From the IMG/VR virus record IMGVR_UViG_3300050142_000050, positions 128,001 to 192,000 of that record: a DNA stretch of 64,000 bases, one strand, 5' to 3'. Numbering within the stretch: the first letter of the stretch is position 1; each line of letters opens with the position of its first letter. This document shows, in pieces, positions 13,515 to 17,903 of the stretch. Source of the DNA: a virus. Its lineage: Duplodnaviria > Caudoviricetes. Under the pieces are notes generated by a model, which made no database searches, had not been told where the DNA came from, and was given only the letters and a program-made list of their open reading frames with translations. Both the position numbers and the translations under genes were made by a program.

Positions 13515-13586
13515 GTCCGAATTCCTTGCCTGTGAGGGGGTGACTTTCATAAAATGTAATGGGAGAGGGGCGTAATGCCCCTCTCC

Positions 13587-14114
13587 TCAAATAGGGTCAT
13601 ACTTCCCATTCTTAATGGAACTATCGGTGAGCATACGTCGCGTCAGATCGGTAGCTAACTTGTCGGCCATGTCATTGAGTTTGTCTCCACTATGAGATTT
13701 CACCTTGACATAACGACATGACTTTAGCTTATCGATCTTTGCTCCGATCTCTCTGATGAGATCGGCATTCTTGATGGGCTCCCCATTGACCCCTATCCAT
13801 CCACGCTTAGCCCACATCTTCCTCCACACAAAGAGGGAAGCAAGCGTATAAGCACTGTCACTATAGATGACCACTGTCTCCAGATCAGGTAAATCCAGAG
13901 CATAGTTGACGGCCATCAATTCCATCTGGTTGATGGTAGCTCCACGGTGAGCATAGGCAGCAGTATGGACGATCTTCTTATTGATATCGTCCCACACTAC
14001 ATAAGCGCATGATGATGCATCGGGTCGTCTGTGCGATCCGTCAGTGTAAATGTGGACTACAGATGGAATCTTCTTGGGGAGATCTGCATCTTTGGTTTCC
14101 ATGGTGATCTCCAT
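13587..14114 (-). CDS. rnhA: Ribonuclease HI
   Basis: IYTDGS, TINQMELMAV, YSDSAY, IKNADL and VKSHSGDKLNDMADKLA give the full D-E-D-D/H catalytic set. Confidence 0.95.
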   Translation of the reverse strand: MEITMETKDADLPKKIPSVVHIYTDGSHRRPDASSCAYVVWDDINKKIVHTAAYAHRGATINQMELMAVNYALDLPDLETVVIYSDSAYTLASLFVWRKMWAKRGWIGVNGEPIKNADLIREIGAKIDKLKSCRYVKVKSHSGDKLNDMADKLATDLTRRMLTDSSIKNGKYDPI

Positions 14115-14153
14115 TCATTCTCTATCAAACCATGGTCGCCCTATAGGGAAAAT

Positions 14154-14197
14154 AAAACCAGAATCAATTATTTTCAACACTATATCACCACAGTGAA
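14154..14197 (+). promoter_or_regulatory. Putative early (virion-RNAP) promoter
   Basis: AAAACCAGAATCAA-N13-TATATCACCACAGTGAA. Near-identical copy at 17154. Core resembles the phiKZ early TATTAC motif. Confidence 0.65.
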
Positions 14198-14248
14198 GTT
14201 AAGGTAATGAATAGTTCGTTATCTCAATTTCATCAAGGAGAATGTCCC

Positions 14249-14458
14249 ATGAAGATTCTGCACAAGCTCTCGATGAAGGCCAACATCGCAACGCACTCGC
14301 TGATCTCGAGCACTAAGACTGTGGTGTCGTCCTACAAGAACGATCCCACGTTCCGCTCCAATGTGAACATGATGGGTATCGCCTTCATCTATGGCGCCGC
14401 GACATCACACAACTACCACACTCGCAAAGCCCGCAAGGCTGCGAAGAACAAAGCCTGA
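14249..14458 (+). CDS. Small early protein (69 aa)
   Basis: SD AAGGAG before ATG 14249. First gene after the early promoter. Confidence 0.7.
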   Translation: MKILHKLSMKANIATHSLISSTKTVVSSYKNDPTFRSNVNMMGIAFIYGAATSHNYHTRKARKAAKNKA

Positions 14459-14461
14459 TCA

Positions 14462-14516
14462 AACTGGCGTCCTACGTGGTGTGGGGATATTCCCCACACC
14501 ACTATTGAAATCAGTT
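14462..14516 (+). promoter_or_regulatory. Conserved intergenic RNA hairpin E1 (RNase III-like site)
   Basis: aactgg..tc-CTAC-[12-bp stem gtggtgtgggga/tccccacaccac]-TATT-ga..tcagtt. Confidence 0.6.
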
Positions 14517-14538
14517 ATACACCTCAAGGAGAATCAAC

Positions 14539-14727
14539 ATGTTTGGTATCAAGAAGGCTATAGTCAACGCCTCGCAAGTCAAGAATCACATCAGAGGTGA
14601 CATCGAACTCCGCATCAGAGCCACTGATGCATTTGCTGCCTTCGGTGAAGGCTTCGGTGTCGGTCTCATCGCATCGATCCCAGTAGCGATCGCATTCATC
14701 ACCATCGCCAAGAAAGCCATCAAGTGA
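14539..14727 (+). CDS. Small membrane protein (62 aa)
   Basis: SD AAGGAG. C-terminal Gly-rich TM segment (GFGVGLIASIPVAIAFITIA) followed by KKAIK. Confidence 0.7.
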   Translation: MFGIKKAIVNASQVKNHIRGDIELRIRATDAFAAFGEGFGVGLIASIPVAIAFITIAKKAIK

Positions 14728-14781
14728 CTATCTTCCTACGGACTGTGATCTTGTCCTAATCACAGTCCTATTGAACATAGT
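14727..14781 (+). promoter_or_regulatory. Conserved intergenic RNA hairpin E2
   Basis: actat-c-ttc-CTAC-[10-bp stem ggactgtgat/atcacagtcc]-TATT-gaa-c-atagt. Confidence 0.6.
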
Positions 14782-14805
14782 TATCAAAAATCAAGGAGAA
14801 CACCC

Positions 14806-15237
14806 ATGTCCACCATCGCCTGCTTCTCACCCAAGATCGTCCGTCAGGGTAATAAGCATATCGTTATCATGAACCCCTTCGCGAAGCCCGCTAATGTGGG
14901 TCGTCGATTCGTCGAAACAATCGGATACACCGAAACGAAGGATCTCCTCTCGCTCAACTCGTACGATATCGAAGAGCGTGAGTTCGAATACTTCTCGCCC
15001 TCCTACCAGTACGCTTATGCTGAGTTTATGGAGCGTCCGGATGCTAAGGAGATCCTGGGTCGTATCATTGAAAATGCTATCCACCTCAACGCCAAAGAAG
15101 CTCGTGCTCACATGACTCACAACAACGCCAGTGAACCGATATACAACACCGACTGGTCGCAGTTCACGATCTCGATCGACACTCTCTACCAGATCCATGC
15201 ACAGACTGCCGAAATGGTAGTCGACTCATTCAAGTAA
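14806..15237 (+). CDS. Early hypothetical soluble protein (143 aa)
   Basis: SD AAGGAG. Codon pattern like highly expressed genes. Confidence 0.75.
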   Translation: MSTIACFSPKIVRQGNKHIVIMNPFAKPANVGRRFVETIGYTETKDLLSLNSYDIEEREFEYFSPSYQYAYAEFMERPDAKEILGRIIENAIHLNAKEARAHMTHNNASEPIYNTDWSQFTISIDTLYQIHAQTAEMVVDSFK

Positions 15238-15239
15238 AC

Positions 15240-15291
15240 ACTATTTTCCTACGTACTGCGGGTATTAACCCGCAGTACTATTGAGCATAGT
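15240..15291 (+). promoter_or_regulatory. Conserved intergenic RNA hairpin E3
   Basis: actat-t-ttc-CTAC-[10-bp stem gtactgcggg/cccgcagtac]-TATT-gag-c-atagt. Confidence 0.6.
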
Positions 15292-15305
15292 TTAAGGAGG
15301 TCCTT

Positions 15306-15668
15306 ATGAACTTCATCATTCATACCGTTGTGGCCATGTTTATCACTCAGCTAATTATGGTAGTCTTCACCTTCTCGAAATTGACACGTCCGTACAAGGA
15401 CATCCCACTCAAGAACAAGGTGATCTTTGTCCTGGCCAACGTCGGCGTACTGCTGACCCTATCTACGCCGATTCTGATCTTCGCTTTGACGAAGGTTCTG
15501 TTTCTCGGGGTCGTTGCGATTATCGCGTCATTCACTGTATTTTCAGTCGTCATCGTAATGGATGTCGCGGGTCATGACCTGGGCGTTGATGTGAAATCAG
15601 ATTTGATGCGTTGCAACCGCATCTCGTACATTCTCAGCTGCGCATCATTCGGTCTCATCGGCCGGTAA
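15306..15668 (+). CDS. Multi-pass membrane protein (120 aa)
   Basis: SD AAGGAGGT. Three to four hydrophobic helices. Confidence 0.75.
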   Translation: MNFIIHTVVAMFITQLIMVVFTFSKLTRPYKDIPLKNKVIFVLANVGVLLTLSTPILIFALTKVLFLGVVAIIASFTVFSVVIVMDVAGHDLGVDVKSDLMRCNRISYILSCASFGLIGR

Positions 15669-15693
15669 CCCAACTCCAATAAGGAATATCACC

Positions 15694-16056
15694 ATGTCTC
15701 ACCCTGACGTCGACCTGCGCACTGCGCGTGATGTATTCGGCAAACATGCCAAATCGATCTTCAACAAGGAAACCTATTATCCTTCGATCGATGAGAAGAC
15801 AGCTTCTCGCTCGGGTATTCCCGAATGCGATCGTGTCCTCTTCAACAAGTTGACCAAGCGGATCATCGATGATCCCGATTGCGATATCACTAAGGCTGAG
15901 CTGGCGGTCTTCATGTCCGTCCGTAAGACCTTTCCTGAGATCGGTGTCGAAATCGACTACATCGTCAAGACCAACAAGTATCGCAAGCCCATACTGGGCG
16001 GTATCATCGGAACCCTGATTACGGCCGTGGGTGTCCTGGCCTTCATCAATCGCTGA
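15694..16056 (+). CDS. Tail-anchored protein (120 aa)
   Basis: SD AAGGA. C-terminal ILGGIIGTLITAVGVLAFI-NR. Confidence 0.75.
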   Translation: MSHPDVDLRTARDVFGKHAKSIFNKETYYPSIDEKTASRSGIPECDRVLFNKLTKRIIDDPDCDITKAELAVFMSVRKTFPEIGVEIDYIVKTNKYRKPILGGIIGTLITAVGVLAFINR

Positions 16057-16102
16057 CCTCTTACATGGGTAGGAATATTCCTACCCATCATTGAGCTCAA
16101 TG
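16051..16102 (+). promoter_or_regulatory. Conserved intergenic RNA hairpin E4
   Basis: tga-c-ctc-TTAC-[palindrome atgggtaggaatattcctacccat]-CATT-gag-c-tca. Confidence 0.6.
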
Positions 16103-16126
16103 AAAAGCTCTCCAAGGAGAATACAC

Positions 16127-16306
16127 ATGTCTGACAACAATACCAACAAAGAGTCCATCGAGTCCATCCGCGAAAAGACCCAGCTCTATGAAAAGCTGGC
16201 TGAAGCTCATCGCGAAAAGCGCCAGCTCAAGGAAGAGGTCGCCAAGGGCACCATCCTGACGGCAGTCGCATGCTCGCTCTATTTCATCTTCGGTCTCAAG
16301 AAGTAA
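16127..16306 (+). CDS. Tail-anchored microprotein (59 aa)
   Basis: SD AAGGAG. Charged helix followed by TILTAVACSLYFIFGL-KK. Confidence 0.7.
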   Translation: MSDNNTNKESIESIREKTQLYEKLAEAHREKRQLKEEVAKGTILTAVACSLYFIFGLKK

Positions 16307-16320
16307 GAAAGGTTTTCACC

Positions 16321-16500
16321 ATGACCCCCCAGAACAATCAGTCGGAACTCGACATCGCCAACGAAAAGCTCGAAAAGGCCAAGGCCGCTTTCACCGAAGC
16401 CGCTTCTGACAGCGAGCGCACCTCCAAGCGCGAAGTGGTGGCCGGCGCTGCTTCGATCACGGCCTTCGGGATCCTGATCTATCGGGCCTTCTTCTCGTAA
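16321..16500 (+). CDS. Tail-anchored microprotein (59 aa)
   Basis: SD AAAGG. Charged helix followed by VVAGAASITAFGILIY. Confidence 0.7.
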   Translation: MTPQNNQSELDIANEKLEKAKAAFTEAASDSERTSKREVVAGAASITAFGILIYRAFFS

Positions 16501-16502
16501 CA

Positions 16503-16556
16503 ACATTCCTCTTACATGCATAGGGGCATTTGTCCCTATGCATCGTTGAGTGATGT
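16503..16556 (+). promoter_or_regulatory. Conserved intergenic RNA hairpin E5
   Basis: acatt-c-ctc-TTAC-[10-bp stem atgcataggg/ccctatgcat]-CGTT-gag-t-gatgt. Confidence 0.6.
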
Positions 16557-16575
16557 AACAACTCAGGAGTGAAAA

Positions 16576-16896: not shown

Positions 16897-17025
16897 ATGG
16901 AAGATCGTGCAGAAGAAAAAGCTCCCAATCCCGACAACCGGGACAAGGAGTTCGTCCTGGGGCTGGGTAGTGTGGTAGCACTCCTCGCATCCATCGTTTG
17001 TCTCACCTCGGTATTGCGGAGTTAA
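16897..17025 (+). CDS. Tail-anchored microprotein (42 aa)
   Basis: SD GAGGA. MEDRAEEKAPNPDNRDKEFVLGLGSVVALLASIVCLTSVLRS. Confidence 0.65.
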   Translation: MEDRAEEKAPNPDNRDKEFVLGLGSVVALLASIVCLTSVLRS

Positions 17026-17030
17026 ATACC

Positions 17031-17150
17031 ATGGAAGAAGCACCAAAGAAGACCCTCGAGGTCGTCGTCAATGTCTCGAACAAGGCCGTGATCCTGGGTA
17101 GCCTGTCTGCCCTGGTGACTGGCGTGATCTACGGGATTCTCAATCGCTAG
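17031..17150 (+). CDS. Tail-anchored microprotein (39 aa, not in ORF track)
   Basis: SD GGAG. MEEAPKKTLEVVVNVSNKAVILGSLSALVTGVIYGILNR. Confidence 0.6.
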   Translation: MEEAPKKTLEVVVNVSNKAVILGSLSALVTGVIYGILNR

Positions 17151-17153
17151 ATC

Positions 17154-17197
17154 AAAACCAGAATCAAAAAATATCAACCTCATATCACAACTGTGAA
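17154..17197 (+). promoter_or_regulatory. Putative early promoter, second copy
   Basis: AAAACCAGAATCAA-N13-CATATCACAACTGTGAA, same spacing as the 14154 copy. Confidence 0.65.
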
Positions 17198-17249
17198 TGG
17201 GGAAAACAATCCTGTTCTTTTCAATCATCTTTTTTGAGTGGAGCTCAAC

Positions 17250-17609
17250 ATGTCTATCACCAACAACGATTCCGCCGACCTGAACAACAACGGCGACAAC
17301 AACAGCCGTGCCAACAAGAAGGTCGAGTCGAAGACCACGACCGCCAAGAGCGAAGACGGCTCGAAGACCACCACCACGACGGTGGAAACCGAAACCGAAG
17401 TCAAGCCCGGTCTGTTCGGTCGTCTCTTCGGCACCATCGCCCGCAACCCCGTCAAGTCGACCGTCGTGGTCGCTGCTGTGGGCACGGGTGCATACTTCGG
17501 CTACAAGCACTTCCAGTCGGCCGGCGAAGTCGTCGTGGCCACCTCGGATGTCGTCGAAGAATCGGCTGAAGTGGCCGTCGAAACCGCGGCTGCCTTCTTC
17601 GGCCGCTGA
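17250..17609 (+). CDS. Early protein with Asn/Thr-rich N-terminus and a central hydrophobic helix (119 aa)
   Basis: SD GGAG before ATG 17250. TVVVAAVGTGAYFGY segment. Strongly biased codons. Confidence 0.75.
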   Translation: MSITNNDSADLNNNGDNNSRANKKVESKTTTAKSEDGSKTTTTTVETETEVKPGLFGRLFGTIARNPVKSTVVVAAVGTGAYFGYKHFQSAGEVVVATSDVVEESAEVAVETAAAFFGR

Positions 17610-17660
17610 TACCTCTACCACAATAACCGTGGGTCGCATCACTAATAGGAGGTAATCGAC

Positions 17661-17723
17661 ATGATTGCCATGATGATCAATCTGCTGATGAAAACCTCTT
17701 CGGTTATCACCGGTAAGAAATAA
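17661..17723 (+). CDS. 20-aa hydrophobic micropeptide
   Basis: Perfect SD AGGAGGT. MIAMMINLLMKTSSVITGKK. Confidence 0.5.
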   Translation: MIAMMINLLMKTSSVITGKK

Positions 17724-17733
17724 GGAACGAACG

Positions 17734-17856
17734 ATGGAGAAGACTTCCTCTATTGTCGGAACCATCGTCGTATTCGGCCTCGCCATTTATGGCGCGATCG
17801 ATTTGGGCTACAAGATCCTCACGATGTCGCGCAAGCTCAGCGAATACGACGAGTGA
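17734..17856 (+). CDS. Single-TM microprotein (40 aa)
   Basis: SD AAGGA. MEKTSSIVGTIVVFGLAIYGAIDLGYKILTMSRKLSEYDE. Confidence 0.6.
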   Translation: MEKTSSIVGTIVVFGLAIYGAIDLGYKILTMSRKLSEYDE

Positions 17857-17861
17857 TAGAG

Positions 17862-17903
17862 TGGTGGGGGCATATGCCCCCACCACCTTATCCTTTATTT
17901 TTT
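17862..17903 (+). terminator. Intrinsic terminator ending the early operon
   Basis: GC stem gtggtggggcat/atgccccaccac (G/C runs approximate) followed by a T-rich tract. Confidence 0.7.

Follow-up and report, generated by a model that had tools for sequence, protein, structure and literature searches.

The locus described here raises the question of what a set of short, similarly built hairpins does between the small genes of a jumbo phage, and whether these hairpins act in the transcript or in the DNA. It lies in a window of 64,000 nucleotides, which corresponds to bases 128,001-192,000 of a 249,638-bp IMG/VR virus contig (IMGVR_UViG_3300050142_000050); positions refer to this window unless genome positions are named. 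A first-pass annotation had noticed five such elements, here called E1 to E5, and had likened them to the sites at which RNase III cuts the early messages of phage T7. All five are present where it had placed them, on the + strand, each between the stop codon of the upstream gene and the next AAGGAG-type Shine-Dalgarno (SD) sequence. The gene calls for the array region were taken from the identical contig L250, and the features are as follows (z, single-sequence folding; bits, covariance-model score):

14462-16556, + strand: array E1-E5, one transcription unit of small (39-143 aa), mostly membrane-type open reading frames (ORFs), according to the gene calls
14462-14516, + strand: E1, -30.1 kcal/mol, z -4.4, 71.8 bits
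14725-14783, + strand: E2, z -3.6, 63.5 bits
15241-15292, + strand: E3, z -5.5, 72.9 bits
16054-16099, + strand: E4, z -5.4, 65.2 bits
16503-16556, + strand: E5, family fold at -23.9 kcal/mol, 61.7 bits

We consider it probable that these elements have an RNA-level cis role of some kind. By analogy, they may be processing or stability signals of the sense transcript of the T7 RNase III-site type, a reading that we favour tentatively and with somewhat less than even confidence.

From base to tip, the elements consist of a lower stem of about 5 bp, a mismatch of 1-2 nt, a 3-bp YUC/GAR stem and a symmetric 4x4 internal loop whose 5' strand reads YUAC and whose 3' strand reads YRUU, continued by a perfect upper stem of 10-13 bp and an apical loop of 3-9 nt. 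This two-tier hairpin is obtained by single-sequence folding for E1-E4, whereas the family fold of E5 lies above its minimum free energy (MFE) structure of -30.0 kcal/mol; the covariance model fits all five, and the stabilities of the elements range from -22 to -30 kcal/mol. E1 combines the lower stem AACUGG/UCAGUU with the mid stem UC/GA, the loop CUAC/UAUU, the upper stem GUGGUGUGGGGA/UCCCCACACCAC and the cap UAU, and the upstream stop codon TGA is located at 14456-14458. The lower stem of E2, UGACUAU/AUAGUUA, has the stop codon TGA (14725-14727) at its base, and the loop CUAC/UAUU is topped by an upper stem of 10 bp and an apical loop of 9 nt. E3 has the lower stem ACUAU/AUAGU, the mid stem UUC/GAG, the loop CUAC/UAUU and the upper stem GUACUGCGGGU/ACCCGCAGUAC, and the SD sequence begins 2 nt past it. 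The stop codon TGA (16054-16056) is likewise part of the short lower stem UGA/UCA of E4, which continues with the mid stem CUC/GAG, the loop UUAC/CAUU and the upper stem AUGGGUAGGA/UCCUACCCAU. E5 is built from the lower stem ACAUU/GAUGU, the mid stem CUC/GAG, the loop UUAC/CGUU, the upper stem AUGCAUAGGG/CCCUAUGCAU and an apical loop of 8 nt. In its MFE structure (16499-16575), the 5' flank CAUUCCU pairs with the downstream SD sequence CAGGAGUG, which is 6 kcal/mol better than the family fold. Sequestration of the SD sequence by UUCCU of the 5' arm was rejected as a general role, since it is present solely in the MFE structure of E5.

The five elements belong to a larger family. A regular-expression scan followed by a covariance-model search identified exactly ten copies in the 249,638-bp genome, all on the + strand and with scores of 61.7-75.3 bits, while the next match reached 28 bits. 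The copies beyond the window are:

genome position 92,324, + strand: family copy
genome position 92,724, + strand: family copy
genome position 194,764, + strand: family copy
genome position 198,351, + strand: family copy
genome position 204,457, + strand: family copy

An 11th copy (61 bits, E = 3e-16) with a new upper stem, AUGCUCUGGUUC/GAACCAGAGCAU, was found in a 14-kb ENA contig of a relative whose DNA polymerase is 65% identical; it sits in the syntenic small-gene operon beside RNase H. The small proteins around this copy resemble none of those of the phage studied here, and the flanking core genes are 29-64% identical. Since the nearby small genes are unrelated, the element has outlived its neighbours. 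In contigs from three metagenome runs, an E3-type core is set between other flanks and has a lower stem, CUGUA/UACAG, that is new and compensated, and reads matching 15246-15285 and 14470-14508 carry E3-like and E1-like cores whose flanks are missing from the 249,638-bp contig, one example being ...GCGGCATAATCTGTA / core / TACAGTCAACTGAAAAGGAAC... Because these flanks are absent from the contig, the family must have additional members, which belong either to the 11% of the genome that is missing or to a relative occurring alongside the phage. Rfam holds no relevant family for the element.

In the alignment of the 11 copies, standard pairs occupy 97.6% of 208 cells, and 14 of the 19 pairs show compensatory changes in which both sides are altered. 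None of 500 shuffles matched the observed pairing and covariation, and slid registers pair at 34-52%. The lower and mid helices covary (ACUAU/AUAGU, ACUGG/UCAGU, ACUGA/UCAGU, ACAUU/GAUGU), and they contain 7-8 G-U cells, for which the opposite strand would have A-C mismatches; the top-strand G-U pairs mentioned in the first-pass annotation are thus found in the lower part of the structure, and the upper helix is Watson-Crick paired throughout except for one apical G-U. As the covariation of the lower and mid helices is accompanied by strand-specific G-U pairs, the folded molecule must extend over the entire element on the + strand; this suggests a read-through transcript. Across all copies, the loop letters UC-YUAC ... 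YRUUGA show no or almost no variation, and base pairs 2-3 (U-A, G-C) and 8-9 (G-C, G-C) of the upper stem are almost constant. The upper stems had been described as completely different in sequence; they do vary and remain paired, but, apart from the nearly invariant positions, some of them recur, with GTGGTGTGG present in four copies and ATGGGTAGGA in two across the genome. It had also been noticed that the closing pair tracks the loop letters. This association holds for 11 of the 11 copies, which fall into the classes C-UAC G...C U-AUU and U-UAC A...U C-RUU; these are two lineages only, and judged from the sequences, the association may reflect descent of two subfamilies rather than function.

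The contig is linear, has a G+C content of 50.6%, is 89% complete according to CheckV and is present in nearly clonal form in at least 24 metagenome runs from leaf litter. Its divergent family-B DNA polymerase (PolB; PF20286), tail sheath and virion proteins share 24-32% identity with those of phiKZ-like jumbo phages of Proteobacteria, including the Pseudomonas phages EL and Psa21, the Serratia phage Moabite, and Erwinia and Vibrio phages. A megablast search revealed no close cultured relative, and a single-protein locus search with the tail sheath also gave no close relative. The RNA polymerase domain PF00562 was not detected in the contig, and the phiKZ-like assignment therefore rests on the divergent PolB, the tail sheath, the virion proteins and the promoter and terminator motifs.

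Each of the 11 copies points the same way as the genes on either side of it. The stop codon of the upstream gene is invariably part of the 5' arm of the lower stem or precedes this arm by a few bases (TGACTAT, TAACTAT, TAGACTAT, AACTGA), and an AAGGAG-type SD sequence follows 1-18 nt past the 3' arm, at a variable distance. Gene pairs of the same clusters that lack the element are separated by merely 5-25 nt. The E1-E5 unit is bounded by the following signals:

14153-14200, + strand: early-promoter-like motif aaccagaatcaa...TATATCACCACAGTGAAG (motif at 14181), 39.6 bits with the position weight matrix (PWM), heading the unit
17861-17900, + strand: canonical terminator closing the unit, an 11-bp GC-rich hairpin followed by CTTATCCTTTATTT

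All copies are located between co-directional ORFs, those of the array between the promoter-like motif at 14181 and the terminator at 17861, within a presumably continuous transcript. The conserved motif tCATATTACCAnnGTGAa occurs about 20 times in the genome, always on the + strand, and the unit that contains copies A and B begins with a near-identical promoter-like motif at genome position 91,635. Such a motif is found upstream of seven of the ten copies, for which the earlier designation as part of an early operon is supported by this sequence motif; the other three have none nearby, and the label does not extend to them. Another 80 or so GC-rich hairpins of 10-15 bp are present in the genome, perfectly paired and in most cases closed by a tetraloop; about 60 of these carry a pyrimidine-rich stretch ending in CTTATTT and represent canonical terminators. 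They correspond to the terminator motif of phiKZ, a hairpin followed by TTAT (PMC10914365). A scan with the terminator consensus flagged the hairpin at 17861-17886 and none of the five elements, which, as noted before, have no T-rich tail on their 3' side. The early-promoter PWM, derived from about 20 sites, matches no element, and TATG is also absent from them. Both alternatives are thus disfavoured, and the elements are distinct from the terminators and promoters of this phage: they lack the CTTATTT tail and a PWM match, and they lie inside transcription units. A phiKZ-type intrinsic terminator was rejected on the same grounds, since the tail of the element reads YRTTGA. Moreover, neither a promoter nor a terminator accounts for the covarying helix, because its arms flank the putative start or stop point.

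To compare the elements with T7, its five early intergenic regions were folded with the same tool. The T7 early hairpins (R0.3, R0.5, R1, R1.1 and R1.3), which are established RNase III sites, are not annotated as such in the RefSeq record. When folded, they show a lower stem of 5 bp (UGAUA...UAUCA) that includes or abuts the stop codon, an internal loop of conserved sequence (ACUC/UAUGAU), an upper stem of 9-13 bp with the conserved base AAGGUC and partly recurring sequences, a tetraloop and no U-tract. Both groups are thus intercistronic; in both, the lower stem of about 5 bp contains or adjoins the stop codon, the cap is small and a U-tract is missing, and each group has kept the sequence of its internal loop; the upper stems of 9-13 bp in T7 and 10-13 bp in the elements are partly shared between copies in both, and the 3' loop strand is similar (UAUGAU in T7, UAUUGA in the elements). 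The elements differ from the T7 sites in the symmetric 4x4 loop (YUAC/YRUU), in the extra mismatch that divides the lower helix and in upper stems without G-U pairs, and their phage differs from T7 in being a phiKZ-like jumbo phage with its own RNA polymerases. As the loop and stem sequences differ and no homology was found, the proposed likeness to T7 RNase III sites holds for structure and position and fails for sequence, and the relation is one of analogy, not common descent. Early polycistronic transcripts of the Bacillus phages SP82 and SPO1, which are large myoviruses, are cut by Bs-RNase III at a few conserved stem-loops; host group and sequences differ from those of the elements.

Each element corresponds to an irregular hairpin of about two helical turns with an upper stem of about one turn, as is the case for T7-type signals. 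We infer that it acts as RNA rather than as single-stranded DNA, and the cleavage, the cut site and the enzyme are proposed by analogy. In the mechanism that we favour, the polycistronic message of the small genes would be made first, and each element would then fold into the irregular helix. A double-strand-specific endoribonuclease, most likely host RNase III, would recognize this helix and nick it in the 4x4 internal loop; the conserved pairs adjoining this loop, together with those at positions 8-9 of the upper stem, would aid recognition. The upstream cistron would finish in the stable upper hairpin and be shielded from 3' exonucleases, while the downstream cistron would begin with a short unstructured leader ahead of its SD sequence. 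In this way, the stability and translation of adjacent accessory genes would be uncoupled.

Several observations weigh against processing by RNase III. No RNase III or double-stranded RNA-binding domains (dsRBDs; PF14622, PF00636, PF00035) were detected in the 89%-complete contig, so that the processing enzyme would have to be of host origin; host RNase III is likely in this respect, because the relatives of the phage infect Proteobacteria. The loop letters have remained invariant beside genes that were replaced, which speaks for sequence-specific recognition, and this is not strictly needed by RNase III. As four copies share one upper stem, part of the apparent conservation results from recent duplication. 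Furthermore, the upper stems form perfect palindromes of Watson-Crick pairs, and this would also suit a role at the DNA level. The avoidance of G-U pairs in these stems was rejected as a sign of DNA function, since the terminators of the phage are just as G-U-poor (9 of 445 pairs on one strand and 0 of 295 on the other). Finally, the family is restricted to one narrow lineage and is absent from relatives with about 55% PolB identity. An invariant loop in a lineage-restricted family would fit a dedicated factor equally well, and this is the main reservation.

The narrow distribution emerged from searches at several levels. With the covariance model, no family copies were found in five IMG/VR jumbo-phage records, including a 308-kb relative, in which a de novo hairpin census gave only U-tailed terminators. 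The check that had been proposed, a covariance-model search of the genome and its relatives, thus yielded the ten genomic copies and the single additional one in the relative with 65% PolB identity. Two relatives with about 55% PolB identity have non-homologous, long and irregular hairpins without T-tails between the small genes of the syntenic operon:

L247, 17720-17772: non-homologous irregular hairpin
L247, 18392-18445: non-homologous irregular hairpin
L249, 15974-16016: non-homologous irregular hairpin

One such hairpin has a lower stem of 8 bp, a 4x4 loop and an upper stem of 10 bp. These hairpins would fit a function that is defined at the level of structure and is either reinvented or fast-diverging. 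When IMG/VR was scanned with loose patterns, all matches were due to chance or lay in coding sequence; for one pattern, 60 of them fell in a conserved gene of an unrelated, abundant phage. Stricter scans of IMG/VR, the JGI metagenomes and 185,579 reference genomes revealed no true copies. Mimicry of a clustered regularly interspaced short palindromic repeat (CRISPR; hairpin plus AUUGAA) was rejected, as the stems vary and the reference genomes contain no matching repeat.

Variation between strains bears on the question of DNA or RNA. Throughout the array, six contigs of this phage are clonal, and no joints or deletions between elements were found in the contigs of four metagenome DNA runs, in which rare forms would be missed. 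Reshuffled or circular cassettes had been named as a sign of a DNA role, and no such inter-element joints were seen there. The apical loop of E5 (16526-16533) is exactly inverted in the strain of run X24 (GCATTTGT -> ACAAATGC), with four positions changed. As this exact inversion persists in a wild strain, the sequence of the loop is dispensable, as expected for helix-directed recognition. The flip is also the classic one of a DNA palindrome and demonstrates activity of the palindrome in the DNA itself. Recombination between copies probably has a share in the turnover of cassettes, which we see as a side effect and not as the function of the elements. The X24 variant strain differs by about 1% single-nucleotide polymorphisms (SNPs) in the genes adjoining E5.

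The reservation about the invariant loop leads to the proposal that a sequence-specific factor other than RNase III, either a phage RNA-binding protein or endoribonuclease or a host factor, binds or cuts the element. By reading the 4x4 loop together with the neighbouring base pairs, such a factor would exert post-transcriptional control over the accessory gene set, with a logic akin to that of T4 RegB or RegA. The near-complete invariance of UC-YUAC, YRUUGA and upper-stem base pairs 2-3 and 8-9 in 11 copies, including that of the relative with its unrelated neighbours, speaks for this idea, and a lineage-specific family would be expected if it co-evolved with a lineage-specific protein. However, no candidate protein was identified, the T7 RNase III sites also have sequence-conserved loops, so that loop conservation is compatible with RNase III, and a translational operator is disfavoured by the variable distance to the SD sequence; overall, such a factor is unlikely, though it keeps an appreciable chance. 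We assign a low probability to the narrower proposal that a dedicated factor of this lineage, an unrecognized endoribonuclease or RNA-binding protein, reads the 4x4 loop and thereby defines a post-transcriptional regulon of accessory genes. If this were true, the elements could determine when early messages are shut off, or serve to sort those early transcripts that have to leave the transcription compartment of a nucleus-forming phage. The stability of the elements, together with their repeated, intergenic and gene-co-oriented occurrence, would also be expected of passive hairpins that remain uncut and block 3'-to-5' exonucleases or insulate translation between cistrons, and with the stop codon at the base of the helix, a terminating ribosome would unwind the lower tier only. 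For a mere exonuclease block, however, the lower helix need not covary and the internal loop need not be invariant, and the ordinary hairpins of the phage would suffice, which leaves this explanation a small chance. Its model would be the repetitive extragenic palindromic (REP) sequences and bacterial interspersed mosaic elements (BIMEs), which are intergenic operon palindromes of host genomes that can stabilize upstream mRNA, occur in both orientations and are tied to RAYT transposases. The elements resemble them as repeated intergenic palindromes within operons, but are found in one orientation, without a Y1 transposase and without copies in bacterial genomes.

A function in the DNA itself, be it as a recombination hotspot for the shuffling of cassettes, as a selfish palindrome similar to a miniature inverted-repeat transposable element (MITE) or as a hairpin site of a recombinase, would explain that the elements occur in regions of wholesale small-gene replacement amid conserved core genes, that some copies have identical stems, that promoter cassettes are duplicated across loci, that the E5 loop is flipped in one strain and that assemblies break at these repeats. 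Nevertheless, it seems improbable: the contig encodes no tyrosine recombinase (PF00589), serine recombinase or Y1 transposase (PF01797), attC-like core sites were not found, the six strain contigs are clonal and the four runs lack recombinant joints, and the single orientation, the strand-specific G-U pairs and the absence of copies from bacterial genomes and unrelated phages also argue against it. An integron attC site was rejected, as PF00589 is missing and the conserved letters TCYTAC / YRTTGA differ from the cores RYYYAAC / GTTRRRY; an IS200/IS605 or REP-RAYT hairpin was rejected given the missing PF01797, the restriction to the + strand and the absence of copies from the 185,579 reference genomes. 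The promoter(early) stem-loops (PeSLs) of T4-like phages combine a sigma70-type early promoter with a working terminator (PMC2839356, PMC4122927). PeSLs and the elements are both short conserved stem-loop repeats among small non-essential genes in hyperplastic high-turnover regions, and the gene content around the element is indeed replaced between relatives. The probable share of inter-copy recombination in cassette turnover would be a further parallel. Unlike PeSLs, the elements contain neither a promoter nor a terminator, and no recombinant joints were seen in the four runs; a PeSL cassette was rejected because the promoter PWM misses the elements and the terminator tail is absent, and the PeSL analogue of this genome is the canonical terminator paired with an early promoter. 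A transcriptional signal, finally, would be either a weak tail-less terminator or pause graded along the operon, or a middle-class promoter with a YTAC box and a YRTTG start. The upper stems do resemble terminator stems in their length and G-rich 5' arms; the phiKZ and 201phi2-1 terminators (PMC10914365, PMC11512511) are likewise GC-rich perfect hairpins with a purine-rich 5' arm that occur in many repeats, but they carry a TTAT or U-rich tail and stand at the ends of units, whereas in the elements YRUUGA pairs back into the lower helix inside units. The late promoters of phiKZ contain TATG, and its middle promoters hold TTAC about 24 nt upstream of the start site (PMC4666361), to which the YTAC of the elements bears a faint resemblance, with a YTAC-YRTTGA spacing of 24-29 nt. 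Against both versions, the scan flagged none of the five elements, a TTAT or T-rich tail is lacking, units end at canonical terminators, the YTAC is not preceded by an A-rich stretch on its 5' side, and the lower helix forms after the passage of the polymerase and spans the putative start, so that its covariation is unexplained. Of the explanations considered, this one is very improbable.

To our knowledge, phiKZ-like phages transcribe their genes independently of the host, and what happens to their polycistronic messages afterwards has hardly been studied. If the elements are processing signals, these phages would still seem to rely on RNA processing, with a host enzyme as the most likely agent, for adjusting the output of each accessory gene. 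No account of such sites in phiKZ-like phages was found in the literature searched, in line with the novelty that had been claimed for them. With a length of 55 nt, the elements are compact, can be synthesized and are testable without phage culture. Since they delimit cassettes where gene content changes very quickly, they could also aid the annotation of jumbo-phage metagenomes.

Some further observations concern the surroundings of the array. A promoter-plus-leader cassette of about 75 nt, aaccagaatcaa...TATATCACCACAGTGAAGTTAAGGTAATGAAT, is almost exactly duplicated at 14153-14235 and at genome positions 91,607-91,690, with unrelated genes downstream, and several independent assemblies end precisely at this cassette, at position 14207. 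A third related promoter cassette is located inside the small-gene cluster at 17181 (17153-17200). Because a copy of the cassette lies at this place in the cluster, the 254-aa minus-strand ORF at 17022-17786 is probably spurious. Some of the canonical terminators are bidirectional, and many have a promoter motif or TATG within about 50 nt; an example on the - strand is found at 13562-13586. The gene for RNase H (PF00075, E = 2e-26) occupies 13587-14114 on the - strand, divergent from the hairpin operon, and this divergent arrangement is kept in all relatives examined. In the JGI contig L252, the 143-aa gene between E2 and E3 (14806-15237) carries the exchange C14991A, which creates a TAA stop codon, in addition to a 6-bp deletion and one further SNP, and the gene thus looks dispensable in nature. 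Contig L253 has a 35-bp deletion at 17355-17389, within a 119-aa Thr-rich ORF (17250-17609).

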